Position numbers and translations under genes: made by a program
Origin: Escherichia phage vB_EcoP_PAS59
Sequence record: OQ921332.1
Length of the DNA: 64,000 nt
Reading direction: 5' to 3' (one strand)
Notes under the pieces: generated by a model
The model's database searches: none
Seen by the model: the letters and a program-made list of their open reading frames with translations, nothing else
What the model was told of the DNA's origin: nothing
Part shown: positions 24,672-57,729 of the stretch, in pieces
Position numbering within the stretch: the first letter of the stretch is position 1
Layout of the letters: each line of letters opens with the position of its first letter

Positions 24672-26462
24672 ATGTCAAAGATCATTTTGGGAGACACAGG
24701 CTGTAAAGAGTGCATCTCTCATGGTCGTGATAAGACCCATAATCACATGATTCTCTTCCGAAATGAAGAGTCCGGTGAGGAGTGGGGTTCATGTAACAGA
24801 TGTGGTGCGTATGAAATCTTCGAGAAAGGAACGACGCCCACTCCTAATGAAAAGAAAGAGCTGTCCCCTGAAGAACTTCGAGAAGTCTTAGACGATTGCT
24901 TAGAGCTTCCTCAGGGAGAGTTGACTCGTCGCTTAATCCCTAAAGCTGTGTCTGAACGCTATGGATGCCGTATTGGTTTAAGTCAAACAGACGGTCAAAC
25001 TCCTGACAGCTACTTCTTCCCTCGTGAACGTGATGGGAATATTGTTGGATATGAAGTAAAACTTCTAGACAGCAAGAAATTCTATTATGTAGGTAATGTG
25101 AAAGAAGCCGACTTATTTGGTATGGCTCAAGCACAACGTGGTGACGTATACAACAAGAAACTCTTCATCTTTGAAGATCCTCTCTCTTGTATGTCTGGGT
25201 TCCACGTACTTACCGCGTTTACAAACGCAACTAACATCAAACCTGCTTGCGTCTCTCTTCCGTTCGGTGCAGGTTCAATCTCTTCTGTCTTATCAAGAAA
25301 CCGTGATTTTATTAATGGTTTCGAGGAGATTGTACTCTGCATGGACAATGATGATGCAGGTGAGATTGCTTTAACTAAGGGTCGTTCTCTGTACCCGCAT
25401 GTTAAGTTTTCAAGGATTCCAAAAGGTACGTTCACTTATAACGGACAAGAAAAGGAAATCAAAGATGCAAACGACATGTTACTGGCAGGGAGAGGTCAAG
25501 AGCTTTTCAATAATCTTAAGTATTCAGCTAAGCGGGAATCTCCTGCTGGAGCTGTTACAGTTTTTGATTGCCTCGAAGATGCTCTGAAGAAAGCGGAATG
25601 GGGTATTCCTTATCCGTGGAAAACTCTTAACGACATGACCTTTGGTATTCGTTGGGGAGAGATGGTTGCAATCGGCGGTGGTGTTGGTTCAGGTAAAACC
25701 TTAATCGCACACGAACTGGTAGCATGGCTTTGCCTTGAGCATGGTTTTAATGGTGGTGGCTTCTTCTTGGAAGAGAAGGTAGGCATGTCTGTTAAGAACA
25801 TTGCTGGTAAGTCTGCATCTGTTCCATTTCACCGACCAGATGTTGAGTATGAAGAAAGCCAGCTACGAGATGAAGCACTTCGATACGCTGATAAGTTTTT
25901 CTTATACGACAACTTTGGACAGAATGAGTGGGAAGACATTAAGCAGTGTATTCGCTTTTGGGTAGTTGAGAATCAATGTAAGTTTATCATCCTTGATAAC
26001 ATCACTGCATTGGTATCTCACTTAACTCCATCCGAAGTGAATACAGAAATCAGTAAGATTGCTTCAGAGCTTGCTGGTATGTGTAAGGAATTAGACTTCA
26101 CTGCTTTTGTGTTATCTCACTTGAATGCTCCGGCGGGCGGTGCCCCTCACGAAGAAGGTGGTCAGGTTAAAGAAGTACAGTTTACTGGCTCACGTTCATT
26201 AATGCGCTGGTGTCAATGTATTATCGGTTTCGAACGTAATAAACAAGCGGATGGGTTAGGTAAAAACTTGTCAATCATACGTCTGCTCAAAGAGCGTAAC
26301 TATGGACAGACGGGGGTTTGCTATACCAAATATATTAACGAAACAGGTCGTCTTGTAGAACGAGAAGATCATGAAGTTGATGAAGATAATCCGTTTACAG
26401 TCACCAACGGAGAAGATGCAGCTTCCTTACTCTCACAAGAAGGGGAGGCGCGTCCGTGGTAA
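24672..26462 (+). CDS. T7 gp4-like primase-helicase
   Basis: ORF track; RBS AGGAGG; zinc ribbon CKEC...CNRC; Walker [10 protein letters not shown]. Confidence 0.85.
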
Positions 26463-27004
26463 AGAAACTGTATGCGTTTGATATTGAAGGTGATAACCTC
26501 TATGACGGTATTCAGAATGTCTGGTGTATATGGATATTTGATGTACTGTCTGGAGAACGGTGGGGGTATCGCCCTCACCAAATTGAAGAAGCACTACACA
26601 AACTGAAAGAAGCTGATGTAGTAATAGGTCACAATATTATTGATTTTGACCTTCCTGCTTTGTTTAAATTCTATTCTCATGTGATACCTTTTCGTTTTAA
26701 TGTCTTTGATACTCTGTGCCTGAGTCGATACCTCAAGCCTGACCGTATTGGTGACAGTCCAGAATACCCCAAAGGCGACCCTAGACATGGCCCTCGCGGT
26801 CATGGCCTCAAGCAATGGGGTGAATTTCTGGGAGAGCTGAAGGGTGATTATGGTGAACAGGAAGAAGCATGGGACGCATTCACTGAAGACATGTTCACAT
26901 ATTGTGAGCAAGACGTTAACTTGACAGTTAAGGTTTACATGTGTCTTTGCCAAATGGCAGGATTTGATTATAAGAATCCCCCATCTCTCAACTGGAAAAT
27001 GTAG
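26456..27004 (+). CDS. family-A DNA polymerase, N-terminal 3'-5' exonuclease domain (separate ORF)
   Basis: ORF track; Exo I motif FDIEG; [38 protein letters not shown] align with T7 gp5 residues ~1-190 as recalled; ends at a stop. Confidence 0.8.
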
Positions 27005-27006
27005 AA

Positions 27007-28479
27007 ATGATTAAGATTCCATTATCTGAATTGAACCTTCAAGAAGGAGAAGCCCTCAGTGTAGGGCTTGACCTGATTCGTAATTTGATCAGAGATAACG
27101 TAGTCCCTGATGGCATCTATCCTGTTATTGCAGGTGGTGCTATCCGTGATACGTTCTTTCAAAATAGAACTCCGAATGATGTTGATATCTTCCTAGTTCA
27201 AGGAGGATTACGTTGGAACGCTCGTCAGGAAAATAGCCCTGCTAACGTAGGTAATGCTGCACTTTTCCTTGACAACTTCTTATCTTGGACAGAAAGTAAA
27301 GGGCTTCAGGTTACATCTCGACTAATTCAGCCTGTTAACGGGACAACCTATGCTGAAGCGCTTTTCACTTTCCAAGAGATTCTGGAAATCGAGATTGATC
27401 AAGTTAAAATCCAGATGATGATTAATCTACCTTTGGATATGGATACTTTAAGCCGTCGCTTCCCTATGATCTGTCAAGGGTTTATGACTCTTGGTAATCT
27501 GTATGTGTCAAACGAAGGTTTGTTTGCAATGTCATACACTCGTGACATTCCTGTGGTGTCCAGTCGTGAAATGAAGTATGTTCACAAGAAGTGGCCTGAA
27601 GCAACTGTTGCAGTTTATAGCAGTTCTACCGAATATATGCACCTTGCAATGGGAGCTTTCGGTGAGCCAGAAGTTCACCTGATTAGTGATTTAGTTGGAC
27701 CTATGGCTGGTGTAAATTTATATCAGAATCAGCGTCGTCATTATACCCTGAAGATGATGGAAACTACATTAAACATTCCTCAGGAAAGGGGTCGTAGTTA
27801 TCTGGACGAGGAAGTTAACCTACAGACAGAATGGTCTAGTGGATTAACCACTATAGGTGCTGAAGCAATTACACGACCTTGGACTCCGGGAACTAACAGA
27901 CGAGATCTTCAAGCTTTTAATGAAGAAACTTCTCGAACTGTTCGAGGAGGTGTTGTAGGGTATAACGTACAACCTCATGAAAGACCTCGTGATACTTTCA
28001 CTGGTAGTTTTGGTAGTGCACACTCTTCTGGAATGGATACTCGTACATGGCATGTCCAAGGAGGAACTGCTCGTCCTATTCCCTCTCCGTCAATGGATGA
28101 TTTGCAGCGTTCTCGTCGTTCATGGGAAACAGTAAGCTCTGTTGTTCAGGGTCTACGTGCTAGTGATATTGAACGTGTAGAAGTTGGTGATTTGCCAACC
28201 TCTACAGAAGATCGAGTATCAGCTATAGCGGCTCGTGAAGCTGCTCATATTGGTTTTGCATCATTAGCTAATGACGCTAACGAAGCTCCTCGACCTGTTG
28301 GTCGTCGTAATGGTCTAGCTCACTCTGACACTGCACTTGGTGCAGAACTACGAGCAGCAGCTCGTGAGCTATCTGGTGAGCTTCACAACAACCTGGCAGG
28401 TGTTACACTATCTCGTGAAACAGCTCGTAATATGATTAATAATTTGGCATCATCTGTACAAGGAAACAGAAACTCATGA
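27007..28479 (+). CDS. Pol-beta superfamily nucleotidyltransferase (CCA-adding/poly(A) polymerase-like head) with low-complexity C-terminal half
   Basis: ORF track; GGAIRDTFFQNRTPNDVDIF matches the GGxVRD...DxD signature. Confidence 0.5.
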   Translation: MIKIPLSELNLQEGEALSVGLDLIRNLIRDNVVPDGIYPVIAGGAIRDTFFQNRTPNDVDIFLVQGGLRWNARQENSPANVGNAALFLDNFLSWTESKGLQVTSRLIQPVNGTTYAEALFTFQEILEIEIDQVKIQMMINLPLDMDTLSRRFPMICQGFMTLGNLYVSNEGLFAMSYTRDIPVVSSREMKYVHKKWPEATVAVYSSSTEYMHLAMGAFGEPEVHLISDLVGPMAGVNLYQNQRRHYTLKMMETTLNIPQERGRSYLDEEVNLQTEWSSGLTTIGAEAITRPWTPGTNRRDLQAFNEETSRTVRGGVVGYNVQPHERPRDTFTGSFGSAHSSGMDTRTWHVQGGTARPIPSPSMDDLQRSRRSWETVSSVVQGLRASDIERVEVGDLPTSTEDRVSAIAAREAAHIGFASLANDANEAPRPVGRRNGLAHSDTALGAELRAAARELSGELHNNLAGVTLSRETARNMINNLASSVQGNRNS

Positions 28480-29009
28480 GTCTTTTAGGTTCTCAAGAAT
28501 TACACAGCGTTATTGATAATGGCTTTTTAGATGCGGAGCATAAATATGTTAACGCTGCTAGTGTGGATATCCGTATTGGTGATACTATCCTTGTTGAAGA
28601 GCAGGCTGATGGTATTGTTGACATTGATGCTAAAGAAAACCTCAAGTGGAAAGAAGTAAAAATCCCTGAAGATGGTATCGTTATCACTCCGGGACAGTTC
28701 TTCTTAGCTCACTCAATGGAAGAGTTTAACCTTCCAGACAATATTTCAAGTCTGTTTGTACTCCGCTCCTCAATGGCTCGTTGTGGTTTAAACCATCTCC
28801 ATGCTGGTTGGGCTGATGCAGGGTTTAATAACAGTAAGCTGACCTTTGAGTTCCATAACGTTACTCACAATCACAGCTTACGAGTTCGTGCTGGGATGCG
28901 TGTCGGTCAAATGGTTATGTTTGAACACTCTCACGCTGGTGATGATTCCTATGCAGTGAAGGGTCGTTATAACAACTCCGATGGGGTTGTTGCTTCTAAA
29001 GGTGTATAA
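28476..29009 (+). CDS. dcd: dCTP deaminase / dUTPase-superfamily protein
   Basis: ORF track; AASVDIRIGD and RSSMARCGL resemble Dcd motifs. Confidence 0.6.
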   Translation: MSLLGSQELHSVIDNGFLDAEHKYVNAASVDIRIGDTILVEEQADGIVDIDAKENLKWKEVKIPEDGIVITPGQFFLAHSMEEFNLPDNISSLFVLRSSMARCGLNHLHAGWADAGFNNSKLTFEFHNVTHNHSLRVRAGMRVGQMVMFEHSHAGDDSYAVKGRYNNSDGVVASKGV

Positions 29010-29431: not shown

Positions 29432-29501
29432 TTGGTAGTAGATATGATAACTCTCAAATGTATATACAGTATAAGAATATTGTATGAAACAGGAGAGAGT
29501 T

Positions 29502-29831
29502 ATGTTAGATTTGAGTAAAGTGGCCCCGCCATCTGAAGAGATTAGCAAAGCTAAAGTTATGCAGCAGTTCTATCATCGTGACATGCTTGGTCGTTATATC
29601 AAGAATCGTGATGTTGTTGCATGGTCTATTGGAAACCAAGGCTATCTTCTCAAAGTGTTGCAAGTTACTGGCTCAACAGCCAAGCGAGTCAAAGTCTATG
29701 ACCCTGAGATGGGGCGTTCTAAATCGGTAGACCCACAGAATTGCATTGTTATTACACAGCAGGTCATGGATAACATTGCTCGTAATGTAGCTAATTCAAC
29801 TAACTTAGAAGGGGATGCACCTAATGCATAA
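29502..29831 (+). CDS. hypothetical protein
   Basis: internal ATG of ORF track 29484..29831 behind AGGAGAGAG. Confidence 0.4.
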   Translation: MLDLSKVAPPSEEISKAKVMQQFYHRDMLGRYIKNRDVVAWSIGNQGYLLKVLQVTGSTAKRVKVYDPEMGRSKSVDPQNCIVITQQVMDNIARNVANSTNLEGDAPNA

Positions 29832-29919
29832 TAATGTCTTCGACTTACCAGAACTAACAAGAGTGGGTTCTAGTAATCCATTCTCTACTACTGATTCTTC
29901 TATCTCTCGTCTTGAGGGA

Positions 29920-30390
29920 ATGAATAAACTGATTAGCAGTAACAGCCTAGAGCACATTCTTTGTGGTGTGCAGGCTAACCTTGAACTTCTACACATCAAA
30001 GCAAAGAACTACCACTGGAACGTCTCTGGAGCTGGTTTCCAAGGTGTTCATGGGATGTTCGATGAGTTAGAAGATTATGCTCGTGAGGCAGGCGACCGAA
30101 TAGCAGAGCGTATGCGCTTCCATTGTGTTAAGGTGGATGCCACTGCTAGTAACTATTTAGGTCACGCTTGGTTCCGAGAAGGTAACGCTGATCTCGACAT
30201 GGACGGTATGCTTTCCGACATGTGCATGACTCTTATGTGTATCATTGAGAAGATGGACGAGTTTGATTCAGACTTGTGCACCTATCCAGTTGATCAGAGT
30301 ATGCTTCAAGAAATTAATGAAGGTCTTGGCAAGTTCTGTTACTTTGTCAAGAGCAACATGTCCCACTCTGGTGGTGATGTGTCTTACTAA
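29920..30390 (+). CDS. Dps-like ferritin-fold protein (start could be as early as 29815)
   Basis: ORF track 29815..30390; HIKAKNYHWNVSGAGFQGVHGMFDE...DRIAERMRF aligns with the Dps ferroxidase region. Confidence 0.5.
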   Translation: MNKLISSNSLEHILCGVQANLELLHIKAKNYHWNVSGAGFQGVHGMFDELEDYAREAGDRIAERMRFHCVKVDATASNYLGHAWFREGNADLDMDGMLSDMCMTLMCIIEKMDEFDSDLCTYPVDQSMLQEINEGLGKFCYFVKSNMSHSGGDVSY

Positions 30391-30453
30391 TCAAACCTCC
30401 GCCCTGTCTCGTTTGTTCAAGAGGTGGGGCGAACTTTTTATAAGGATGTGAAT

Positions 30454-30633
30454 ATGTTTTCAGCAATCGTATGGTCTGTGTGGGCAATTCTTGTTGGCGG
30501 TATCGTTTATCTGGCTCAGAAGCAGATGCTTAAAGAGAATCCGAATGATGCCAAACCTATTAAACATGGTAGCATTGCTCTGGTAGTTTTCTCTGTTGTC
30601 ATTCCTTTCCTTCTCCACCTGTTGACTGCATAA
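30454..30633 (+). CDS. small membrane protein (tandem paralog 1)
   Basis: internal ATG of ORF track 30424..30633; IVW.VW.I.VG.VIY...KENP. Confidence 0.4.
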   Translation: MFSAIVWSVWAILVGGIVYLAQKQMLKENPNDAKPIKHGSIALVVFSVVIPFLLHLLTA

Positions 30634-30642
30634 GGGTTTGAT

Positions 30643-30828
30643 ATGATTTCACTGATTGTGTGGGCCGTGTGGTCGTTAATAGTTGGTACTGTTATATATA
30701 AAGCTCGAAATTTAGCAATTAAAGAAAACCCAGCAGAAGAGGATGTTAAAGCTATCAAGCTAGGTAGTGTTGTTCTGGTACATTTTGCTATAACACTACC
30801 TCTTGTTATTATTCTTTGTATGCTATAA
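30643..30828 (+). CDS. small membrane protein (tandem paralog 2)
   Basis: ORF track. Confidence 0.4.
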   Translation: MISLIVWAVWSLIVGTVIYKARNLAIKENPAEEDVKAIKLGSVVLVHFAITLPLVIILCML

Positions 30829-31018: not shown

Positions 31019-31294
31019 ATGAGTAAAGTAATTAAGTTTTATAGTGATCAGTGTGCTCCATGTAAAGCAATGGCTCCTACCTTTGAGAAGGTTGTTAAGG
31101 AGTTTGATGTAGAAGTGGAAGAGATTAACATCCTTGAAGGTGATGGTCGTGAACAAGCTGTTAAGTATGGTGTACGAAGTATCCCTGCTTTCGTTGTGCC
31201 TGACCGTAACAGTGGTGCACACTACAGCCTCTCCGGTATGCAGACTGAAGCAAACCTGAAAGCATTTTTGGATACAGCTCTAGGCAATAAATAA
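31019..31294 (+). CDS. thioredoxin
   Basis: internal ATG of ORF track 30965..31294 behind AAGGA; CAPCK active site; YGVRSIPAFVV and LKAFLDTALG align with E. coli TrxA. Confidence 0.75.
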   Translation: MSKVIKFYSDQCAPCKAMAPTFEKVVKEFDVEVEEINILEGDGREQAVKYGVRSIPAFVVPDRNSGAHYSLSGMQTEANLKAFLDTALGNK

Positions 31295-31309: not shown

Positions 31310-31801
31310 ATGAATAATATTGACCCGTCAATAAAAGAAGCTCTTGATTACGACCCTTTGACTGGAGATTTCCGATGGGTTAAAACTTATGGAAAAGGAC
31401 ACAAAGGGTCTATAGCTGGTTCTGTAAATACCAATGGGTATTTGAGAATCGTTTATAAAGGTGCTAGATACTACGCTCATCGACTTGCTTACTGGTGGGA
31501 CACTGGATTGCTTCCTGAAGAAGTAGATCACATAGACCGCAACAGGATAAACAACAAAAGAGAGAATCTTAGGGGGACTACTAGATCAGGAAATGGCCTA
31601 AACAAAGTAGCTCAGAGTAATAATTTATCAACCGGAGTGATTGGAGTGACTGTCCATAGAAGGAAAAGTGGCTCTATTGCTTACCGGGCGGTATTTAAAT
31701 CTAAGCACATAGGACTCTTCTCAACCATAGAAGAAGCCTCTAGGGAATATAATAAAGTCAAGGAGACTTACATAAATGACAATCAAAGCTTCATTAATTG
31801 A
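31310..31801 (+). CDS. HNH homing endonuclease (HNH + AP2-like)
   Basis: ORF track; AHRLAYWWDTGLLPEEVDHIDRNRINNKRENLR; paralogous to 42242, 45226, 46618; overlaps ThyX start. Confidence 0.7.
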   Translation: MNNIDPSIKEALDYDPLTGDFRWVKTYGKGHKGSIAGSVNTNGYLRIVYKGARYYAHRLAYWWDTGLLPEEVDHIDRNRINNKRENLRGTTRSGNGLNKVAQSNNLSTGVIGVTVHRRKSGSIAYRAVFKSKHIGLFSTIEEASREYNKVKETYINDNQSFIN

Positions 31802-32423
31802 TAACTTCGGTTCAGATCTTACAGTAGTCAATGCTGCTCGTGTAACTATGGGGGTAGAAAGGGAAGAATTAAAAGAAAGTGACACTCGTCTAATAAATTT
31901 TCTAGCTCGGGAACGGCACGTAAGTCCTTTTCGTCACCCACAAGCGAGCTTCAGATGCGAAGCTCCTATAGCAATTGCACGACAGTTACAGAAGCATCAA
32001 GTTGGTTTTTCTTGGAACGAGATGAGTCGTAGATATAAAGATGGAGCAGTGGATATTTTCATACCTAAAGAAATCTTCTCCCGTCCAGATGATCTACATT
32101 CTGGTTCTGGAATACTTCTTGAAGGGGAGGAAGAGGCAAAAGCTTTAGCTTTGTTTAACTCTGCGTACGAGGCATCTCTTGCTAGTTATGACGAATTGAT
32201 TAAGTTCGTAGCTCCTGAACAAGCTAGATTTGTTTTACCTCAAGGTATGGTAACTACTTGGTACTGGACTGGTAGCTTGTATGGCTGGTTTGAATTGTGT
32301 CGTCAACGACTATCATCCCATGCTCAATATGAAGTTCGACTATTTGCTCAGTCATTAGATGAAGAGATGGCTAAACTCTATCCAATCTCATGGGCAGCTT
32401 TGAAGAAAACTTTGGAGAGTTAA
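31776..32423 (+). CDS. thyX: flavin-dependent thymidylate synthase (ThyX-like)
   Basis: ORF track; RBS AAGGAGA; RHPQASFR and RLSSHAQYEVR motifs. Confidence 0.6.
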   Translation: MTIKASLIDNFGSDLTVVNAARVTMGVEREELKESDTRLINFLARERHVSPFRHPQASFRCEAPIAIARQLQKHQVGFSWNEMSRRYKDGAVDIFIPKEIFSRPDDLHSGSGILLEGEEEAKALALFNSAYEASLASYDELIKFVAPEQARFVLPQGMVTTWYWTGSLYGWFELCRQRLSSHAQYEVRLFAQSLDEEMAKLYPISWAALKKTLES

Positions 32424-32754: not shown

Positions 32755-33075
32755 ATGATCAACGATAGTACATTTAGGACTGGTAACGGAAATGAAATCA
32801 GTCCTGCTGAAGTGATTAAACGACACAGAACACAGATGCTTATCCACTCCTATTTGTATTATTGGTTGGATGACCCAATCTGGTCTGACGATAAGTGGCA
32901 ACAAGTGGCTGATGACTTAACCACCTTGCAAGAGATGTATCCTGAGCCTATTGGATTCTTCGATTCAGAGTTCAATGGATGGAATGGCTCCACTGGTATG
33001 CATCTTCCTCATGACGAGCGTATAGCTTGTATGGCTACTGAAGTATACCGTTTACATAAGGACAAATCAATCTGA
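32755..33075 (+). CDS. hypothetical protein
   Basis: ORF track. Confidence 0.45.
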   Translation: MINDSTFRTGNGNEISPAEVIKRHRTQMLIHSYLYYWLDDPIWSDDKWQQVADDLTTLQEMYPEPIGFFDSEFNGWNGSTGMHLPHDERIACMATEVYRLHKDKSI

Positions 33076-35274: not shown

Positions 35275-35290
35275 CTATAAGGAGTGGGTG

Positions 35291-37012
35291 ATGGATAACC
35301 CTGATAAGTTACCTTTCATAACGGAGATGACAGTCGCTGATATAATCTCAAAACAGGCGAAGCATGGAGTCAACTTCAACAGAAGAAACGCTCGGTGGTT
35401 TGTTCATCTTCTCAAAGAGATTATTGTCAATATTGATAAAGAACTGATTCCTCTCCTCCCCAAAATGCGGGTGGATGGTTCAACTTATTCTAAACCTTTT
35501 AAGAAATCAGGTGCTTTACAGAAGTGGCCTCAGCTCTATTGCGATAGGGTTGGTCTTAAAAGAGAAGATATCGGTGGGGCGTTTACTTGCGTTGAGTATG
35601 TAGATTTTGACCCATCAAAAGATGCACGTATTAAAGAAGCCTTGATGGATGAAGGTTTTATACCTCCAGAGTGGAATTATTCTAAGAAACCTTGGAATAC
35701 TTTTGAAATTCGTAAAGCTATGAAGAAGTATGGTACATACTCTGCATGGTATTCTGCTTGGATTCGAGGTAACGCTAAAGAGAAACAGACAGCAGAGATG
35801 ATAGATGCTGATATCCGAAGGTTTTTGGATAAGCACTTCCGTTATCACACTGTCAATTATATGAAAGCCTATGTCAGCGGTTTAGGTCTTAACCCTAACA
35901 GGAAGAAGCCTGTAACCTTTGATGAAATCAAAAAAGCTTTGGCTACATCAAACAAGTGGCCTACAGCCCCTACAAACCTTGAGGAGACTCTTGAAGAGGG
36001 GCTTGGGGGTGAACTAGGGGGTGTAGGAAGTTTGCTTAAGAGACGCGTTGTAGCGGCTCACAGGCTAGGTTTGATTAGCGGGCTTATCGACAAGGAACGT
36101 AAAGATGGTAAACTGTCCGCCGAAGCTAATAGCTGCGCTACTCCGACATTTCGTTTTAAACATCGCATTGTTGTTAATATTCCTTCTCGCGGTTTGTTTG
36201 GTCACGAGTGCCGCAGTCTTTTTCAATCTGACTATTCCTCAGACGATAGTCATAACCATCCTTTCATCATTACCAACCATATCCCTGATGGGTGTTACGT
36301 ACGAAAGGGTACTAACATTATCTACGAAATGGGAAAACCGGGCAAGAAAGACAAACCAATAGGTGCTTATAAATTTTATGTACCTGCTGGTCGTGAAGTC
36401 TTCTTAGGTTATGATGGCTCTGGTCTTGAGCTGAGGATGCTTGCTCATTACCTTATCAAAGAGTGTCGTGAGATGCTCGCTGAAGCAGAGCGGGAAAACA
36501 ACCCAGCTAAGAAACGGGAAGCTGAACGCGGTCTAGCTTCTGCTGTTATGTACAGAGATATTCTTTTAGAAGGGGATATTCACTCACATAACCAAAAACT
36601 TGCTGGCCTTCCTACTCGTGATAATGCTAAAACGTTTATCTACGCATTCAACTACGGAGCTGGTGACGCTAAGTTAGGAAGCATCGTAGGTGGTGGCTCT
36701 GATGAAGGGGCTGTCATGAGGGCAAGATTCTTAGCAGAGAATCCTTGTATTGCAATTCTTATTGAACGTATGACAGAGAAAGCACAAAGTGGATACATCT
36801 ACGGTGTGGATGGACGTCGTATTACAATGAGGAGGGATGCAACTGGAAAGGTTATGGTTCATAAAGCCTTAAACACCCTCTTACAGAGCGCTGGGGCGAT
36901 TGTTATGAAGTATGCAATGCTATTCCTTAATAAATGGATTGAGCGTGATGGTGTTCGTTGTGCGAAGGTTATTGACATGCATAAACTTCATTGTGCATGT
37001 AAAAGTTGGTGA
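35291..37012 (+). CDS. family-A DNA polymerase, polymerase domain (separate ORF, ~8.3 kb downstream of the exonuclease ORF)
   Basis: ORF track 35288..37012; motif A GYDGSGLELRMLAHY; motif B RDNAKTFIYAFNYGAG; NTLLQSAGA; collinear with T7 gp5 from about residue 200. Confidence 0.85.
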   Translation: MDNPDKLPFITEMTVADIISKQAKHGVNFNRRNARWFVHLLKEIIVNIDKELIPLLPKMRVDGSTYSKPFKKSGALQKWPQLYCDRVGLKREDIGGAFTCVEYVDFDPSKDARIKEALMDEGFIPPEWNYSKKPWNTFEIRKAMKKYGTYSAWYSAWIRGNAKEKQTAEMIDADIRRFLDKHFRYHTVNYMKAYVSGLGLNPNRKKPVTFDEIKKALATSNKWPTAPTNLEETLEEGLGGELGGVGSLLKRRVVAAHRLGLISGLIDKERKDGKLSAEANSCATPTFRFKHRIVVNIPSRGLFGHECRSLFQSDYSSDDSHNHPFIITNHIPDGCYVRKGTNIIYEMGKPGKKDKPIGAYKFYVPAGREVFLGYDGSGLELRMLAHYLIKECREMLAEAERENNPAKKREAERGLASAVMYRDILLEGDIHSHNQKLAGLPTRDNAKTFIYAFNYGAGDAKLGSIVGGGSDEGAVMRARFLAENPCIAILIERMTEKAQSGYIYGVDGRRITMRRDATGKVMVHKALNTLLQSAGAIVMKYAMLFLNKWIERDGVRCAKVIDMHKLHCACKSW

Positions 37013-37073
37013 ACTCGGTGAAACCCGACCATTAAGTTGAGGGCAATACCGAGCTAAGCTATTAGGAGGTGAT

Positions 37074-37469
37074 ATGGCTAAGAAAGATCTAGTGTTAGAA
37101 ACTACTGACACAGGATGTATCATCCCTATCTCACACAAACTTAATAAAGATGGTTACTTCAGAAAGGTAATAGATGGCAAATGGGTCATGTATCACCGAT
37201 ACGTCATGGAAGAAAAGTTTGGAAAGATTCCTGATGGGTTTGAAGTAAACCATAAATGCAAGAACAGAGCTTGCTGTAACACAGACCACCTAGAGATTCT
37301 ATGGGGGAGTGCTCATGCAATAGAATCCAATACAGGTAGAAACAGAGAAAGACAGGAAGCTGCTAAAGAATTCTGGCTTAATAATGAATGTACCGGTGTT
37401 GCTCTTGCGGAAAGATTTGGTGTGAGCTTTGGAATCGCTTGTAGATGGATTCGAAAGTGGAAAGTGTAG
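37074..37469 (+). CDS. HNH homing endonuclease inserted in the DNA polymerase gene
   Basis: ORF track; RBS AGGAGG; EVNHKCKNRACCNTDHLEILWGSAHAIESNTG. Confidence 0.75.
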   Translation: MAKKDLVLETTDTGCIIPISHKLNKDGYFRKVIDGKWVMYHRYVMEEKFGKIPDGFEVNHKCKNRACCNTDHLEILWGSAHAIESNTGRNRERQEAAKEFWLNNECTGVALAERFGVSFGIACRWIRKWKV

Positions 37470-37586
37470 AGACTATCCTTTGGGAGTAGGGGGTTAACAG
37501 GGAAACCCTCGAAGCGCCAACAACAGCAAATTAGCTATGCTGTTATGATATAGTCCGATACCCGAAGTAATTTGGGAATAACATAA

Positions 37587-37742
37587 ATGGATGAAGGTCA
37601 GTTCACTGTACATCGTGATGATGTTAACAAACTTCGTACCCTCACTGAAGAGTGTGTTCGTAAAGCAGGAGAGTACCTCAAGATGGAATGTCCTCTGGCA
37701 TCTGATTGCAAAATTGGATTAAACTGGAATCACACCCACTAA
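37587..37742 (+). CDS. DNA polymerase C-terminal segment (51 codons), separate mini-ORF or 3' exon
   Basis: translation MDEGQFTVHRDDVNKLRTLTEE...CKIGLNWNHTH aligns with the T7 gp5 C-terminus (...GKMGPNWAICH); in-frame TAA immediately precedes the ATG. Confidence 0.5.
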   Translation: MDEGQFTVHRDDVNKLRTLTEECVRKAGEYLKMECPLASDCKIGLNWNHTH

Positions 37743-50100: not shown

Positions 50101-51639
50101 CGTGTTATTTAAAGTGAAAGCATCTTGAATAGGATTAAACCCTTCAGGCATACCTTTCAGTTTCTTCAACCCACCAATAGCCTTCTTCATCTCTGGAGAA
50201 ACATTATCAGAGAGCTTCTGCAACTGAGTAGCTTTCTCAATGAAGTTATTTAGATCTTCGCCATCACGAGCTTTGAAACGATTTGCTTCGCTGTAGAAGG
50301 TCTTGTAGGCATCAATAAAGTCACGGTCAGCTTGTGTACGGTTCTTAATGTCAATAGCACTACCAGTAAAGTCACCACTCGCTCGGAGAGCTACTAACTC
50401 TCGGTCTAGGTTGTCTAGAACATCAGTAAGAGCCTTGGTGTTGTCTTTAGTGTAGTCAGCCATCGCATCTTTCATTGCTACAGCTTGTTTCTGGTTATAC
50501 TCATTGTCAGCAAAAGCTTTACCTTGAGTCTTCTTAGGAGAAGCTAAAGGATTGAGACCGGGAACGTTAGAACTGTCTTTCTGAACAGTAGCAGCCTTCT
50601 CTGCACGACTTTGGTCTGTATTTAAGATGCGCTGAACAGCAGGAGAATCCATAGCAACTGCATCAGTGATACGGAAACCATTTTCATCTAGAAGATTTAA
50701 AGCAGAAGCAGCATTAGCATTCTCAGCTTTAGAGTAGGCTTCACGAAGTTCATCAGCATTAGCAGCTTTACGAATAGCTTCATCTTCAGCAGCAATATCA
50801 GTTTTAACATGCTCAGGAGTACGGTCAAATACTTGAGGGCTAGAACGACTTATCAATCCATGAACCCCACCAATTGCCCCACCATAAGCAGCACCAAGTG
50901 CACCCTCTTCAATAGCCCCTTCTAAGACATTAGCGAGAGTAGTATCATCCCCATATTTGTTCTGAGCTTCAGCAGCACCTACAATAGCACCACCCTTAGC
51001 ACCCGCAACTGCGTTGGAAGCTACGCTCTGTCCTACACGACCAAGAGTCGTAGAAGCTGTACCAGTCATACCCGGAAGGATTTTCTGAGCAGCGTAGTTA
51101 GCACCACCAACAAGAGCAGCATCCAGAACTGACTTGTCTTCGTCTTCTTTTGGAGTTTGGTCAGCATATGCACGACCTGTTTCACGAGCCGCAATAACAG
51201 CAGCAGCAACAGCAGGGTTTGCAACTGTCAAACCAATATCAGCAGCAACTCCAGCATACTGACCAGCTGTTTTACCAAAACCATCTTCTATTTTAGATAA
51301 GCGCTCTTCTAACAATTGCTTGGAGTTCTCTTGAATACGCTTACCGTAGCTTGTTTCTGAACCAGTTAAGTTTTCACCAATCTCTACCAGCCCACCTATA
51401 CCCCTAGCAGCACTAGCTGCAATGTTAGCACCACCAGATTGAAGAGCGTTAGACACACCTTGAGCAAACTCCCCAATAGCACCTCGTTCTTCTTGTTGTG
51501 GTTGCTCTTGTGGTTGAGTCTCAGGAATAGTGCCCCCTGCTGCCTTGTATTGTTCTCTCATTTGAGCCTGTTGCTCTGGAGAGGCATTCAGATACGCAGG
51601 AGCTTTGGAAGCTTCTTCCCACGATTTTAAATTAGCCAT
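47194..51639 (-). CDS. large virion protein (1481 aa; Ala/Glu/Lys/Gln-rich, long helical regions)
   Basis: ORF track; RBS AAGGAG on the minus strand; function inferred from size, composition and position. Confidence 0.55.
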   Translation of the reverse strand: MANLKSWEEASKAPAYLNASPEQQAQMREQYKAAGGTIPETQPQEQPQQEERGAIGEFAQGVSNALQSGGANIAASAARGIGGLVEIGENLTGSETSYGKRIQENSKQLLEERLSKIEDGFGKTAGQYAGVAADIGLTVANPAVAAAVIAARETGRAYADQTPKEDEDKSVLDAALVGGANYAAQKILPGMTGTASTTLGRVGQSVASNAVAGAKGGAIVGAAEAQNKYGDDTTLANVLEGAIEEGALGAAYGGAIGGVHGLISRSSPQVFDRTPEHVKTDIAAEDEAIRKAANADELREAYSKAENANAASALNLLDENGFRITDAVAMDSPAVQRILNTDQSRAEKAATVQKDSSNVPGLNPLASPKKTQGKAFADNEYNQKQAVAMKDAMADYTKDNTKALTDVLDNLDRELVALRASGDFTGSAIDIKNRTQADRDFIDAYKTFYSEANRFKARDGEDLNNFIEKATQLQKLSDNVSPEMKKAIGGLKKLKGMPEGFNPIQDAFTLNNTAKFMSNQDRGWTSLTDDGFREAPAPVLVKNPLGAAKYVLNRFTSDRARAQREKQQSANSEAIRSLARADLEVQRARTQAEEARAKMEEEPTTEDIKFRTQNDAPSEPVREEPSATTVTEEIPSSPAPTETPLTARDLVAQRRALQQAELRRQEAEAAQAQESTTPEPEPQQEALTARELVAQRRAVAEAKKRQEAEEAERAKEAPEKTVEEPQEKPEPLPARAPKAPEKAPEPVKPSLGVERLASMSTAARQATKDRADRFARSLYSAAAKAKATAENFLSYKGDPKELMRRIRQEDQANNTQRHEEMARNQLASQQGIASAKSQHVRSSFADWVKERGLPSDIATKALRAEEKGLGGNVTSLDSLKRRAERLYQKQRDDEFDRLYREALEENKAFDKKDAPKLVDQKKELQDEIGTLLDAEPLRPAQKDAMRRIMEDFVESKFKSSEKAGRVEALEVGQMKDVWDGFINTYNREVNMFNKANKNSQYEAAAKHLQARQERLETLRNRAKARNDAKAAMEAEKQSLEAIAAQKSEMEKMFKELPESVREAQEGRTLKQLAAHHDKNSPVPPERFRSIIERIHNAESDYLDRKRRLTEAEEDAREAKWNRMYEQAEEMNRRFDIDSRVKRDKALKEAQERENDLMAVQRQRDDIHKRLVNTLEEKGVSREDAEAYAGSYMDNRYALLEKPMTPVEHQNARARIESDVEKFVKKYETATPIEREIAKATGDADGKTSDLDAETSKAIEDARKVDSDFKKLLDEEKEMEKIRSALPEDERSQANSDILESIKKQEDDFANKAEKAFIEGKDLQELASVAEVLDRVHGADKAGNNRRFVRALQTAAENKKRYGDNPVAWFSADDYSAIAKLGAASAGGNKSRALEKIFGSTAEQAKGKLLGRDDVAKIRRVIEANPNAKIPSYKTTTRQEYLQFLEKYNDEGELKVKRGSLSDKLERSKRQAKLRVRVRAKE

Positions 51640-51672
51640 AACGTCTCCTTATAAATAAAAATGTCCTACCTC

Positions 51673-51684
51673 CTATATACATTA
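51673..51684 (-). promoter_or_regulatory. candidate phage-sigma promoter motif TAATGTATATAG (minus strand)
   Basis: reverse complement of plus-strand CTATATACATTA, ~35 nt upstream of ATG 51639. Confidence 0.45.
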
Positions 51685-51709
51685 TAAGAGATAGGACTTA
51701 GGTCTTAGA

Positions 51710-53377
51710 TTACTGTAACATCCAACTTGTGTCCGCTGGAGCAGAAGAAAGAGCACCTGTTAATCGAGGATTTGTAGCATCCCCACCAACAGCTGCTTCA
51801 GCTTCACTCTCAAACGTACCGAATGGGTCATAGAAACCAGCAGAAGGAATAGCACGGTTGACAAGAGCTGTCGCTCGTTTCTTATCCATACCAGAGCCAA
51901 TATACGCTTCGATCGTTGCTTTCTTAGCATCCTTAACACCCTTCTCAGCGGAAGTAGCACCAACAGTTGCCTGCTTACGAGCATATGACAGAGCAGCATC
52001 AGAGGGACGATAACCTGCTTTAAGTGACCATGTATTACCCAACTTAACAAAGATGGACGGGTCTTCTGCAAAGTGGGCTAAGTCATCAGCTTGGAGAGAA
52101 CGGTTAGCACCGATTTCTGCCCTTGCGGAGTTCATAATAGCCTGCATGTAAGCAGAACGAGCAGTTTGGTAATCCTTATCCTTAACAGCTTTGTCTGCCA
52201 AATCCAAGTCCTTATGAGACTGGTTGAACAGACCTGCTTTCTCTGCCCACTGCTTAGCAACTGTACCTTCTGCTGTGTTCTGAGCCAGACGAACTTCTTT
52301 CGGATTGAAAGTAAAGCTCTGAGCAGCTTTCTCTGCACGATCTGCTTTAACTTGATCACGATATCCAATAAGTTCTTTCTGTTTCTCAAACTGAGCATTA
52401 GCACGTTCTTCAGCAGCACGGCGAGTTTCAGCAGCACGCTCCCGCATAGAGTTCTCTTGAATCTGCTGACGTCTATCCCATTCACGGTTAGCACGTTCTT
52501 CATCTTGAGCAGCAAGAGCCATTTTCTCCTGAGGACTAATTTGACGCATTTTAAGAAGAGAAGGATCTCCTGAAGCAATTGCAGCAGCAACCGAGTCTTG
52601 AGAGTAGCCTTGCTCTAACAGAGCGTCACGATTAGCTTCTAACTGTTGTTTAGTTTCATCCTGAGCAGCCAAACCAGAGCCAATCTGGAAAGCTTCAATA
52701 GGGGACTTACCAGACATAATAGAAAGACCAACACCCATCAACCCTGTATAGAAACTAGACTTCTGATAGAAAGGTTGTTTTTGAAGTTCATTCCAAGCTT
52801 GAGCTGGGTCTTTGGCTTTAGCAACTTCCATAATATCATTATTGATACGCTCTTGATCTTTAGCACGGGTAGCACCAGCCATACCTTCAGGAGCAGGATT
52901 ACTATTAGCTAGAGTATTAATAACGTTCTGAGCCTGTTCCACCTGAACTGGAGAAAACTCTTTATCTGTTTCTTCCAGAGGTTTACGAGGGGGGGTAACA
53001 GGAAGAGGATCACTAGGCATTAATCCAGCAGCCTGTAAACCTTCATCAGAGGAAAGATCTGGATTAGCCACAGCAGGAGCTGGTTCACCGATATCAATAC
53101 CCTGAAGGCTCGTAGGGGTTCCTTGATTCTCTGATTCCAGAAGTCTCTGTCTGAATCCTGGGTTTAACATAGCCTCTTGATCTTCCTGAGCAGTAGCAAC
53201 AAGAGAAGATAAACCTACAGGAGAGGCAGGAGGTCTCTGACTATACATTGAAACATCAGCAGCTGGGTAAGCAGGTCTTGCCATGTATGGAGAGGCCGAA
53301 GCGGCCCCTTGTTTAACACCATAAATCTGATTTCTTGGGTCTTGACTGCGAAGATACGCATAAGAAGTTTGTTGCAT
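51710..53377 (-). CDS. virion-associated protein of unknown function (555 aa)
   Basis: ORF track; position in the structural operon. Confidence 0.55.
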   Translation of the reverse strand: MQQTSYAYLRSQDPRNQIYGVKQGAASASPYMARPAYPAADVSMYSQRPPASPVGLSSLVATAQEDQEAMLNPGFRQRLLESENQGTPTSLQGIDIGEPAPAVANPDLSSDEGLQAAGLMPSDPLPVTPPRKPLEETDKEFSPVQVEQAQNVINTLANSNPAPEGMAGATRAKDQERINNDIMEVAKAKDPAQAWNELQKQPFYQKSSFYTGLMGVGLSIMSGKSPIEAFQIGSGLAAQDETKQQLEANRDALLEQGYSQDSVAAAIASGDPSLLKMRQISPQEKMALAAQDEERANREWDRRQQIQENSMRERAAETRRAAEERANAQFEKQKELIGYRDQVKADRAEKAAQSFTFNPKEVRLAQNTAEGTVAKQWAEKAGLFNQSHKDLDLADKAVKDKDYQTARSAYMQAIMNSARAEIGANRSLQADDLAHFAEDPSIFVKLGNTWSLKAGYRPSDAALSYARKQATVGATSAEKGVKDAKKATIEAYIGSGMDKKRATALVNRAIPSAGFYDPFGTFESEAEAAVGGDATNPRLTGALSSAPADTSWMLQ

Positions 53378-53391
53378 AATTATTCTCCTAA

Positions 53392-54363
53392 TTAAGAGCT
53401 AGCTAAGCCACCGATAACACCGCCAGCTAAAGCACCCCAAGGGCCAAAAGCTGAACCAGCAGCAGCACCACTCGCAGCACCGCCTAGGAAGCCTCCACTA
53501 CCACCAGATGTTTTAGTAGTTGTGGTTGTTCCCAAAGCCCCGTTAAGAACCCCGGCAGCACCTAGTTGATTGTTAATATCCTGCCAACCCCAATTAGCAG
53601 CATTCTGAGCATTCTCATAAGCATTGTTCAAATCAGACTGCTGTTGTTGCTGCTGTTGCAGTCCTGCATTCCACTGATTCATCATTTGCTGTTGTGATAG
53701 CTGACCAGCTTGGTTTCCTAGATTAGCAAGGTTGGAGCCAATGTTAGATAAACCACCTAAAGCAGATGCTTGTGTTTGTCTATTACCAGAAAGAATGTTC
53801 TGTGCTTGAGTTAGAGCAGAGTCATAGGCACTATTAGTAATATTAGTTGCTGTGTTCTGCATCTGGTTCAGAGCATCACCCTGAGCAAAAGATTTAGCCA
53901 TACGTGCACCAGAACCTTGCTGACCAGCAAACTGCTGAGAGATTTGAGGAAGTGCATTCCTAGCCAAACTCTGTTGGGTTTGTTCATTATTCGCTGCAAT
54001 AGCTGCTTGCACAGCCTCGTCGTCATAGAGCTGGCCTGCAAGAGCCCCAATCTGTTCTCCAGTGATTTGACCAGAGTTTGCAAGGTTGTTATATCCAGAG
54101 TATGTGTTATCTAGATACCCTAAACCAGATTGAGCAGCATCCATGTATTGAGAAGAAAGTGCACCTAATGCACCAGATTGTGATAGGTTGTTCAGAGCCT
54201 CTTGCTGGTTTTGATTAAGTCCAACATTTTCTCGATACACATAATCGCCTGAACTAGTGTTATTAACCTGATTGACCAGCTGATCAATATAGGATTGAAT
54301 GTAGTCAGGTCTTGTCATTTTAGAAGTAGTCTTGCTACTCCCACCACCAAATAAACCTGCCAT
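53392..54363 (-). CDS. Gln/Asn/Gly-rich structural protein (paralog of 54822..55874)
   Basis: ORF track; shared LFG..S.KTT N-terminus and Q/N-rich repeats. Confidence 0.5.
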   Translation of the reverse strand: MAGLFGGGSSKTTSKMTRPDYIQSYIDQLVNQVNNTSSGDYVYRENVGLNQNQQEALNNLSQSGALGALSSQYMDAAQSGLGYLDNTYSGYNNLANSGQITGEQIGALAGQLYDDEAVQAAIAANNEQTQQSLARNALPQISQQFAGQQGSGARMAKSFAQGDALNQMQNTATNITNSAYDSALTQAQNILSGNRQTQASALGGLSNIGSNLANLGNQAGQLSQQQMMNQWNAGLQQQQQQQSDLNNAYENAQNAANWGWQDINNQLGAAGVLNGALGTTTTTKTSGGSGGFLGGAASGAAAGSAFGPWGALAGGVIGGLASS

Positions 54364-54812
54364 TATTTACCTCCTCGCAGATATTTAATTGCATTTTCTA
54401 GGTTTTCTGGTGAATCTTTAAAAAGACCTAAACCAGTGTTACAACTAGAACACAGCAAACCTCTAATGTGAAGACCTTCATGACAATGATCGACAGCAAG
54501 TCTCTTAACAACCCCTTTCAGGGTTGCTGTCTCTGGTTGACCACAGATTGCACAAAGTCCTTCTTGCTTTTCAAACAGTGCATCATATTCTGCAAGAGTT
54601 ATTCCATAAAGTCTTCTCAGGTTTCGGTCTGTTATATTCTCAACAGGTTCACCATAGAGTTTTTTATAGTATGACGGACTGGTTGTTTCTAAACCAGAGC
54701 TTTTGAGTTTTCTTTTTTCTTTCTCTCTCTGGCGGCTAGCCAGATATTTAGATACATCCCTATAACCTTTCTTACGAGCAGCAGCTATAGTGGATTCTGA
54801 GTATTCTTCCAT
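54363..54812 (-). CDS. HNH endonuclease (endonuclease VII-like) between two paralogous structural genes
   Basis: ORF track; CAICGQPE...LAVDHCHEGLHIRGLLCSSCNTGLGLF. Confidence 0.7.
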   Translation of the reverse strand: MEEYSESTIAAARKKGYRDVSKYLASRQREKEKRKLKSSGLETTSPSYYKKLYGEPVENITDRNLRRLYGITLAEYDALFEKQEGLCAICGQPETATLKGVVKRLAVDHCHEGLHIRGLLCSSCNTGLGLFKDSPENLENAIKYLRGGK

Positions 54813-54821
54813 AGCTCCTCC

Positions 54822-55874
54822 TTAATTTGCTCCAAAGGCTCCTAGAACACCACCTAAGATATTACTCCCTGCGGTAGATAGCCAGTTGCTCTGACCGTTC
54901 TGTTGAGACAGGTTTGAGCCACCAATCATAGGACCAGCCATCCCAGCTTGACCTCCAGAAGCATTGTACGAATTCCAAGCATTAGTAGTTTGCTGGTTAG
55001 GGGTAAAAGCACCTAGACGACCAGCAATACCAAGACCAGTAATCCCAGCACCAAGGATTTGTTGTGAAGCATTAGGGGCAGCACCTCTATTAGTAATAGT
55101 GTACCCAGCCATTGGACTTACTGAGTTTAATACATTAAGCTGATTGTTAAGCTGATTCCAACCATACTGCTGACTACCAATAGCATTCTCCCAATTGTTG
55201 TTAGCTTGGAGTTGATCTTGCTGCTGTTGAAGGTTTCCAGCAATGAGCTGATTCTGTATTGCCTGTTGACCAGCTTGTACTCCAGCAGCACCTAGATTCA
55301 AGTTCTGACCTGCTAAACCAGATTGAGCATTTAGCAAACCTTGCTGATAAGAGTTGTTATTCAGAAGATTACTAACACCCATATTTTTACCCTGAATAGA
55401 GCGAGAGAGGTTAGTATTCGCTGAAGAAAGAGCAGCACCTTGGGCAGCAGCACGTCTCAGAGAACCTGAGTCAGATCCATTGCCAAGGGATACATTAGCA
55501 GCAGCTTTACCTGTAGACTTAGCTAGTGCAGAATTATTCAATCCAGAACTAAAGTTATTAACATCCTGAGCAGAGATACCACCTTTATTAACTAGGTTTT
55601 GGTATTTCTGAGCCAACTCATTCATCTGGTCTAGCCCTTGTTGAGTTCGAGGAGTATACATCTGACTAAGTTGGTTAAGTGTATTAGAGTTTGCTAAATT
55701 AGAAAGAGCTGCCGTTTGGCCTTCATTAAAGCCCGCTATATTACGACTGATGAACCCTTGGTCATTTTGATTCATAGCTTGGGCATTGGCTACAATCTGT
55801 TTCAGAAGAGCATCAACCTGAGAAGACGGAGCTACCGTAGTCTTAGATTTAGGAGCAGAACCGAAAAGAGACAT
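54822..55874 (-). CDS. Gln/Asn/Gly-rich structural protein (paralog of 53392..54363)
   Basis: ORF track. Confidence 0.5.
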   Translation of the reverse strand: MSLFGSAPKSKTTVAPSSQVDALLKQIVANAQAMNQNDQGFISRNIAGFNEGQTAALSNLANSNTLNQLSQMYTPRTQQGLDQMNELAQKYQNLVNKGGISAQDVNNFSSGLNNSALAKSTGKAAANVSLGNGSDSGSLRRAAAQGAALSSANTNLSRSIQGKNMGVSNLLNNNSYQQGLLNAQSGLAGQNLNLGAAGVQAGQQAIQNQLIAGNLQQQQDQLQANNNWENAIGSQQYGWNQLNNQLNVLNSVSPMAGYTITNRGAAPNASQQILGAGITGLGIAGRLGAFTPNQQTTNAWNSYNASGGQAGMAGPMIGGSNLSQQNGQSNWLSTAGSNILGGVLGAFGAN

Positions 55875-55883
55875 ATGTCCTCC

Positions 55884-56681
55884 TTATCTGTAAATGTCAG
55901 TGCCTATGCTAGACAGACGTCTAAGCACGGCTTGTGTTTGTGGACTATATCGAGAACCTGCCTGAGTGGGAGCATGTGCTCTTTGCACAGTTTGAGAGTT
56001 AGGTTGCTTTCCTGCAAGCATAGAGGCAGCTGCCAATACAGCATTACCAAAATTCTGTTGAGGTTTTTGATCCTCTCCGGAAGATTGTTCGTCAGAGTAA
56101 AACTCTACAGGACTACCACCTAAAGCTCCAGCCTTACTTGCAGCTATCTCTGCCTGAGTTGGAGCATTAGCAGCTCCTTCTTTAGTAAGTGTGTTAGAGC
56201 CGAATTGGTCTACAGGTTGTGCTGCTTTCAAAGCACCGACAGGGTTAGCCACTTGAGATGCTGCTGTATTCTTATCAAAGAATGGTAGGAACAGTTTGTT
56301 ATTCATCGAATCCAAAGCCTGAGGCGTAAACCCCTTCTTACCAGAGAACATCTGTTTAGCACCGCCAGTCCCTTCTGAATATCCCACCAAAGCCTTCCTC
56401 ACATCGCCATCAAAAGCTTTTAGATTATCTCTTAAATATCTAGCACCCATGTCAATATTCTTTGCAGGGTCTAGCCTATCTTCAAGTTTGTACCCATAAT
56501 CTTTAGCCAACCCCTTACTAATTTGCATTAAACCTACTGGCCCTGTACCTGATGCAACAGAGGGTCTACCACTAGACTCCCTCTGGATAACTGCATGGAT
56601 AAGAGCAGCAGGAATGCCGTACTTCTTAGAAGCTTGCTGGACCATAGGATCTAGCTCAGACACTCCCATTCTTATTGTCAT
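55884..56681 (-). CDS. lytic transglycosylase (SLT-domain) virion protein
   Basis: ORF track; QRESSGRP...GLMQI motif. Confidence 0.7.
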   Translation of the reverse strand: MTIRMGVSELDPMVQQASKKYGIPAALIHAVIQRESSGRPSVASGTGPVGLMQISKGLAKDYGYKLEDRLDPAKNIDMGARYLRDNLKAFDGDVRKALVGYSEGTGGAKQMFSGKKGFTPQALDSMNNKLFLPFFDKNTAASQVANPVGALKAAQPVDQFGSNTLTKEGAANAPTQAEIAASKAGALGGSPVEFYSDEQSSGEDQKPQQNFGNAVLAAASMLAGKQPNSQTVQRAHAPTQAGSRYSPQTQAVLRRLSSIGTDIYR

Positions 56682-56693
56682 ACGTCCTCCTTG

Positions 56694-57728: not shown

Positions 57729-57729
57729 A

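Follow-up and report, generated by a model that had tools for sequence, protein, structure and literature searches.

Does a phage that carries a thioredoxin gene between the two parts of a T7-like DNA polymerase use the product to hold that polymerase on DNA, or as an ordinary redox enzyme? In T7 gp5, thioredoxin is bound by 76 residues that are inserted at the thumb tip between helices H and H1. The question is raised by a locus of Escherichia phage vB_EcoP_PAS59 (OQ921332.1), of which a 64,000-nucleotide stretch, here called the window, was analysed. The original prediction placed a thioredoxin gene at 31019-31294 and proposed that its product is the phage's own processivity subunit or redox factor. 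Its coordinates, its reading frame, its CAPC rather than CGPC motif and its thioredoxin identity were all right, as judged from the ORF, Pfam, the alignment to TrxA and an AF2 model. As set out below, the evidence leans slightly to an ordinary redox role in DNA-precursor supply over a role as processivity subunit.

The trx ORF runs on the + strand from an ATG at 31019 to a TAA at 31292-31294, with the ATG 1 nt past the stop of the preceding small ORF and an AAGGA Shine-Dalgarno sequence 9 nt upstream. The product has 91 aa, begins MSKVIKFYSDQCAPCKAMAP and carries CAPC at residues 12-15. It matched Pfam PF00085 (Thioredoxin) with E=2.2e-13 and 50.6 bits, against a curated cut-off of 23.5, and phrog_22 ('thioredoxin domain') with E=1e-12. 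With phmmer, residues 4-88 aligned to E. coli TrxA 24-107 at ~30% identity, and a search of the PDB returned 173 thioredoxin-fold sequences at E<=0.01. The AF2 model (pLDDT 91.8) has the four strands (residues 3-8, 32-37, 57-61 and 68-72) and three helices (13-28, 43-49 and 77-89) of the minimal Trx fold, and its best Foldseek matches were E. coli TrxA structures (TM 0.8, rmsd ~1.7 A). The canonical thioredoxin redox site is WCGPC at the N-terminus of a helix. In the phage protein C12-A-P-C15 is the counterpart of TrxA C32-G-P-C35, and S54-I55-P56 that of G74-I75-P76, while the ~20 residues that form the opening strand and helix in bacterial thioredoxins are absent, the chain starting at the equivalent of TrxA residue 21-24. 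The protein thus has the PF00085 family match, the fold, the CxxC and the cis-Pro of a thioredoxin, and lacks the bacterial N-terminal beta1-alpha1 and the buried Asp26 (Table 1).

Table 1. Features of the locus in the window, and residues of the phage thioredoxin (Trx) that correspond to those of E. coli TrxA
Feature	Position	Strand	Basis or remark
DNA polymerase 3'-5' exonuclease subunit	26456..27004	+	Pfam DNA_pol_A_exo1 E=3e-5; aligns to T7 gp5 1-~190; 'DNA polymerase exonuclease subunit' in Bas86
dCTP deaminase	28476..29009	+	Pfam DCD E=1e-34
Dps/ferritin-like protein, upstream neighbour of trx in C3-type phages	29815..30390	+	Pfam Ferritin E=7e-8; phrog_3636; synteny in Privateer, 7-11 and L016
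Thioredoxin	31019..31294	+	ORF, Pfam PF00085, TrxA match, AF2/Foldseek; C12-A-P-C15, cis-Pro56; no N-terminal beta1-alpha1
HNH endonuclease ORF between Trx and ThyX	31310..31801	+	Pfam HNH_3 E=3e-10
ThyX, flavin-dependent thymidylate synthase, conserved downstream neighbour of trx	31776..32423	+	Pfam Thy1 E=5e-43
DNA polymerase subunit, exon 1 (thumb, palm, fingers to motif C His564)	35288..36982	+	phmmer, hhalign, AF2, blastn against Bas86
Thumb-tip insertion, Pol residues 57-111, homologous to the T7 thioredoxin-binding domain	35456..35620	+	alignments, model
607-bp insertion in polymerase motif C	36983..37589	+	absent from Bas86 (blastn); HNH ORF 37074-37469
DNA polymerase, exon 2 (DEGQF... 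to C-terminal His)	37590..37742	+	blastn against Bas86 and protein alignment
Equivalent of TrxA W31	Trx Q11
Equivalent of TrxA G33	Trx A13		hence CAPC
Equivalent of TrxA D26	Trx K6
Equivalent of TrxA G74	Trx S54
Equivalent of TrxA K90	Trx L71
Equivalents of TrxA C32 and C35	Trx C12 and C15		kept
Equivalent of TrxA P34	Trx P14		kept
Equivalent of TrxA R73	Trx R53		kept
Equivalents of TrxA I75 and cis-P76	Trx I55 and P56		kept
Equivalent of TrxA G92	Trx G73		kept

The gene is small, and this is the one point that speaks for a chance ORF or a decaying remnant without function. That reading is effectively ruled out by the Pfam match above the curated cut-off, the confident Trx-fold model, the conservation of trx in 128 phage records (tblastn; usually annotated thioredoxin), a dN/dS of 0.13 against the SU7 allele, indicative of purifying selection, and the peptides of the SU10 orthologue (gp65, CDS65), of which mass spectrometry covered 52.8% (PMC4281155). 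We conclude that the window gene is a genuine, functional phage thioredoxin gene. The tblastn matches took in all phiEco32-like phages and the more distant C3-type phages 7-11, GAP52 and Privateer, and the SU10 orthologue has been listed among the few genes common to all sequenced C3 phages (PMC4281155). Further matches lay outside the C3-type phages, in N4-like Achromobacter phages, one crAss-like phage and one jumbo phage. The phiEco32 gp65-type 'thiol-disulfide isomerase and thioredoxin' proteins (SU10 CDS65, SU7 gp063, Bas86_0057) are orthologues of the same length with 76-100% identity, encoded at the same position in the middle-gene block, and differ from the window protein only as alleles do.

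The missing N-terminus is shared with other phage thioredoxins. An exhaustive HMMER search over 1.8 billion representatives returned mostly multi-domain PDI-like proteins, among which a clade of short thioredoxins was still visible; the nearest single-domain relatives were short thioredoxins of 81-99 aa that aligned from their own residue 1-4. A separate search for homologous proteins found 15 close relatives. The short relatives agree with the truncated phage clade described in a recent preprint on cyanophage Syn5, according to which the N-terminal ~20 residues are missing from most phage thioredoxins (10.1101/2025.10.05.680603), and the window protein has the features of that clade: it is phage-encoded, falls within ~80-100 aa, lacks ~20 N-terminal residues and keeps CxPC. 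C-x-P-C and the cis-Pro were invariant in every Trx homologue examined, and CxPC, the cis-Pro loop and the substrate-groove residues R53/G73 were invariant down to ~35-50% identity, including in Privateer and 7-11.

The 12-kb stretch around trx matched phiEco32-like E. coli podophages of the C3 morphotype (Gordonclarkvirinae) in 98 phage records, most closely Bas86 (95.9% identity) and then ECBP2, SU7 and EK010, and the gene order is the same in the window, Bas86 and SU7. Between the two polymerase genes stands a block that encodes a nucleotidyltransferase, dCTP deaminase, the Dps/ferritin-like protein, small membrane proteins, Trx, an HNH protein, ThyX, the N-terminal domain of an NAD-ligase and PhoH; a dNMP kinase gene lies elsewhere, outside this block. 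At 29484-30390, a 115-aa protein (phrog_10984) and the 191-aa Dps/ferritin-like protein, which matches Pfam Ferritin over residues 59-102 alone, form a pair that is conserved beside trx in C3-type phages and is also kept in relatives without Trx. Between the Dps-like gene and trx, at 30424-30828, are tandem paralogous genes for small membrane proteins (69 and 61 aa, both phrog_9296) followed by a 58-aa ORF. The product of 32755-33075, a stand-alone protein of 106 aa, matches a single part of NAD-dependent DNA ligase, its N-terminal Ia (NAD+-binding) domain (Pfam Nlig-Ia, E=1e-33), and has neither adenylation nor OB domain.

Directly downstream of trx is the HNH ORF, which overlaps the start of ThyX by 26 nt. 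No HNH gene separates Trx from ThyX in contig L016, where the Dps-like, Trx and ThyX genes follow one another directly, or in crAss-like phage cr128_1, where Trx is directly upstream of ThyX. Because trx and ThyX adjoin in both, the HNH ORF looks like the insertion of a free-standing homing endonuclease.

The original prediction called the polymerase T7-like, and this was borne out. The polymerase subunit matched T7 gp5 with phmmer (E=1e-29) and, over gp5 residues 213-704, with hhalign (probability 100%, E=5e-54), and T7 gp5 was the top Foldseek match (E=1e-16) of its AF2 model (pLDDT 89). The window polymerase is a T7-type family A enzyme with T7 gp5 as its closest solved relative. The description of trx as next to this polymerase holds in that the gene lies between the exonuclease and polymerase genes, which are 8.3 kb apart, but it is not their immediate neighbour, standing 4.0 kb after the one and 4.0 kb before the other. 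Likewise, the 8.3-kb block that contains trx had been taken to interrupt the polymerase. The same split between exonuclease and polymerase occurs in Privateer, 7-11, Aeromonas phage 4_4572, the LUZ24-like Pseudomonas phage Teru and metagenomic relatives, and since it is shared with relatives that include LUZ24-like phages, it dates far back in the clade and is not a recent insertion particular to this phage. The replicase is presumably a non-covalent heterodimer of the exonuclease and polymerase proteins. Relative to T7 gp5 the polymerase subunit has three further large insertions (residues ~136-250, 320-370 and 390-420, encoded within 35288-37012). The first, of ~100 residues, follows helix H1, and the other two stand before (~45 residues) and after (~25) motif A; all are modelled confidently, and the first is the least conserved (0.38).

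The polymerase gene is itself interrupted by a 607-bp element whose insertion point in catalytic motif C falls precisely between His564 and Asp565; comparison by blastn with Bas86, where the gene is uninterrupted, fixed the end of exon 1. Rfam Intron_gpI matched at 37470-37577 with 30.9 bits (E=8.5e-6), below the gathering score, and SU7 has the same interrupted layout, annotated as three separate CDS. Going by its sequence, the element is probably a self-splicing group I intron that carries an HNH homing endonuclease ORF.

The key evidence on whether the polymerase could accept a thioredoxin comes from its thumb. An insertion is present at the same thumb position as the T7 domain and is modelled with strands at 60-67 and 99-105 and a helix at 79-88 (pLDDT ~90); it is ~25-30 residues shorter than the T7 domain, and the basic K300/K302/K304 loop is absent. 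The candidate docking strand G97-A98-F99-T100-C-V102-E103 corresponds by alignment to T7 G323-E330. Molecular dynamics of the T7 complex identified Y265, E319, P325, T327, V329 and E330 as thioredoxin contacts of gp5 (PMC5984650), and these align to Pol Y67, E93, A98, T100, V102 and E103. Over 94 homologues no other part of the thumb is as well conserved as this strand, whose mean is 0.69 where the remainder of the insertion has 0.52. Gly stands at column 97 in 93/94, Pro at 98 in 88/94, Phe at 99 in 94/94 and Thr or Ser at 100 in 89/94; the window polymerase has Ala at 98. Taken together, these observations make it plausible that the polymerase has retained a docking site for thioredoxin.

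This site is the strongest point for the idea that the phage Trx binds the shortened thumb domain of the split polymerase and, replacing or supplementing host TrxA, provides processivity independently of redox chemistry. The gene and this clamp hypothesis are both already published, the 2021 genome paper on Privateer having suggested that processivity may be improved by a coupling of the phage thioredoxin to the T7-like polymerase (PMC7881722), and the hypothesis is a reasonable one. The kinship of the polymerase with T7 gp5, the structured insertion at the same thumb position and the aligned contact residues all favour it, as does the phage Trx itself, which keeps the equivalents of R73, I75, P76 and G92, and the presence of Trx in all C3-morphotype phages examined in the literature, with or without RNR. 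The known T7 partnership (E. coli TrxA as processivity factor of gp5; PDB 1T7P) resembles the window system in the fold of the thioredoxin (rmsd 1.7 A), in R73, I75, cis-Pro76 and G92 and in a T7-like polymerase with a homologous thumb insertion. It differs in that the window Trx lacks TrxA residues 1-20 and carries W31Q, D26K, G33A, G74S and K90L, and in that the window polymerase has the shorter insertion, no basic loop, and exonuclease and polymerase domains in separate genes.

Several of these differences, and the distribution of the docking strand, argue against a processivity role. An HMM scan for Trx among six-frame ORFs in 10-14 kb on each side of the polymerase gene found none in five lineages that have the same docking strand, namely LUZ24-like Teru, Aeromonas 4_4572 and contigs L010, L014 and L015; within these flanks the polymerase type therefore does not co-occur with a phage Trx. 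The polymerase of L014 is 69% identical to that of the window. The ORFs at the syntenic trx position in L014 and L015 were translated and proved unrelated to Trx. The docking strand is equally conserved in polymerases with and without a flanking Trx gene, and since lineages without Trx share it, its partner, if a thioredoxin, can be a host protein. Both the missing stretch of the insertion and the missing lysine loop weigh in the same direction. K90, which is the salt-bridge partner of gp5 E319, is Leu71 in the phage Trx, so that the bridge would be lost with the phage protein and kept with host TrxA.

The alleles of trx provide another line of evidence. The window Trx is of the phiEco32 type (98.9% identity) and only 80% identical to that of SU7, from which it differs at 18/91 residues, including D10N, Q11S and K16A around the active site, whereas the N-terminal 330 residues of the two polymerases (35288-36280) differ at 1/330 (99.7% identity). 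Synonymous divergence between the window and SU7 is 1.05 for trx and 0.18 for the polymerase region. Whereas the trx allele is phiEco32-type, the DNA that surrounds it is closest to Bas86 and SU7. This mismatch indicates mosaicism, in which Trx alleles appear to reassort against a nearly identical polymerase thumb, and Trx proteins with 80% identity paired with thumbs that are 99.7% identical count against a processivity role. So does the strict conservation of CxPC, as T7 processivity does not need the thioredoxin cysteines (as stated in preprint 10.1101/2025.10.05.680603). On this evidence we consider a processivity role possible but on balance unlikely. Its most specific version, in which the short Trx of phiEco32-like phages has replaced host TrxA as the dedicated third subunit of an exonuclease, polymerase and Trx replicase, strikes us as doubtful. 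Were it true, replication would be independent of host trxA, and a Trx without beta1-alpha1, acting on a thumb without the basic TBD loops, would be enough for processivity. A search of the literature on host trxA dependence of Kuravirus/Gordonclarkvirinae phages found nothing relevant.

The explanation that we favour, with a probability of roughly 0.45, is that the product of trx is a redox-active phage thioredoxin and contributes to dNTP supply and replication. A Trx of the truncated phage type, expressed with the middle genes for replication and nucleotide metabolism, would reduce disulfides and thereby sustain the supply of deoxynucleotides for phage DNA replication. Because the annotation of Bas86, the most similar complete genome, contains no RNR at all, we infer that the client would be a host enzyme (NrdAB, the class Ia reductase, and maybe further thiol enzymes) and that the phage Trx would be recycled by host thioredoxin reductase (TrxB). 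A redox function is supported by the strict conservation of CxPC, the cis-Pro and R53/G73, by the dN/dS of trx and its short thioredoxin relatives, and by homologues in unrelated phage families, which show that the gene is not confined to C3-type phages. The genomic context points the same way: trx lies within a nucleotide-metabolism block (dCTP deaminase, Dps-like, Trx, ThyX), it adjoins ThyX in L016 and in the unrelated crAss-like phage, and Privateer has Trx together with nrdA/nrdB. In one related contig with a split polymerase, a glutaredoxin occupies the equivalent position, with class I RNR genes directly downstream.

Against a redox role, Asp26 is replaced by Lys6 and the Trp before CxxC by Gln11. 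In E. coli TrxA both of these residues aid catalysis. E. coli also already has Trx1, Trx2 and Grx1 for the host enzyme. Across relatives, moreover, the presence of Trx does not follow that of RNR in any clean pattern: Trx occurs without RNR in Bas86 and with it in Privateer, RNR occurs without Trx in the fetched loci of 4_4572, L010, L014 and L015, and the fetched part of Teru has neither. The lack of an annotated RNR in Bas86 and the lack of Trx/RNR tracking make the redox reading somewhat weaker.

Two phage systems offer comparisons for a redox enzyme. T4 NrdC is a glutaredoxin-like protein (CVYC) that reduces the phage-encoded NrdAB. Like the window protein it is a small phage CxxC redoxin with a minimal Trx fold and a nucleotide-metabolism context; unlike NrdC, the window protein resembles thioredoxins in sequence (PF00085), and the annotation of Bas86 contains no phage RNR. 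The Trx of cyanophage Syn5, likened here by its description, shares with the window protein a length of ~85-95 aa, the absence of the first strand and helix, CxPC, a place in a replication cluster and a T7-like polymerase, and the same two candidate mechanisms apply to both phages. It differs in having CGPC and an RNR of its own, against CAPC and no RNR annotated in Bas86. Redox activity was found for the Syn5 Trx, which also increased genome replication; with AlphaFold3 it was host thioredoxins, and not the phage Trx, that docked on the polymerase, and the authors favoured reduction of RNR by the phage protein (preprint 10.1101/2025.10.05.680603). As the one tested precedent, Syn5 is thus the opposite of what a processivity role would predict.

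The redox-active Syn5 Trx is also toxic to its host, which is consistent with some other redox or host-takeover role, as a general thiol reductant or redox modulator. Such a protein might be a partner of the Dps-like protein or ThyX, might buffer the effects of GGCT and amidoligase enzymes on glutathione-type thiols, or might perturb redox-regulated host proteins. The Dps-like gene and a gene for a 111-115-aa protein are syntenic with Trx across C3-type phages, and Trx adjoins ThyX in two unrelated lineages. However, lineages without Trx still carry the Dps-like gene and the small gene paired with it, and we know of no biochemical need of ThyX or Dps for thioredoxin. At 50931-58717, Bas86 has a gamma-glutamyl cyclotransferase-like (GGCT-like) gene together with ATP-grasp, amidoligase, COOH-NH2 ligase and glutamine amidotransferase genes; these peptide-ligase genes are expected in the window as well, upstream of 24672. 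They are what invites the link to GGCT, which is pure speculation. We judge a role of this general kind improbable as the main function of the gene, though the redox, processivity and other roles are not mutually exclusive.

Under either of the two principal readings, neither the gene nor the hypothesis is new to the literature. If the phage Trx clamps its own polymerase, this would be the first virus-encoded version of the T7-thioredoxin processivity partnership, and it would provide a minimal binding module usable in polymerase engineering. If it is instead a redox enzyme, which is somewhat more likely, trx would be one more widespread phage auxiliary gene that boosts nucleotide supply.
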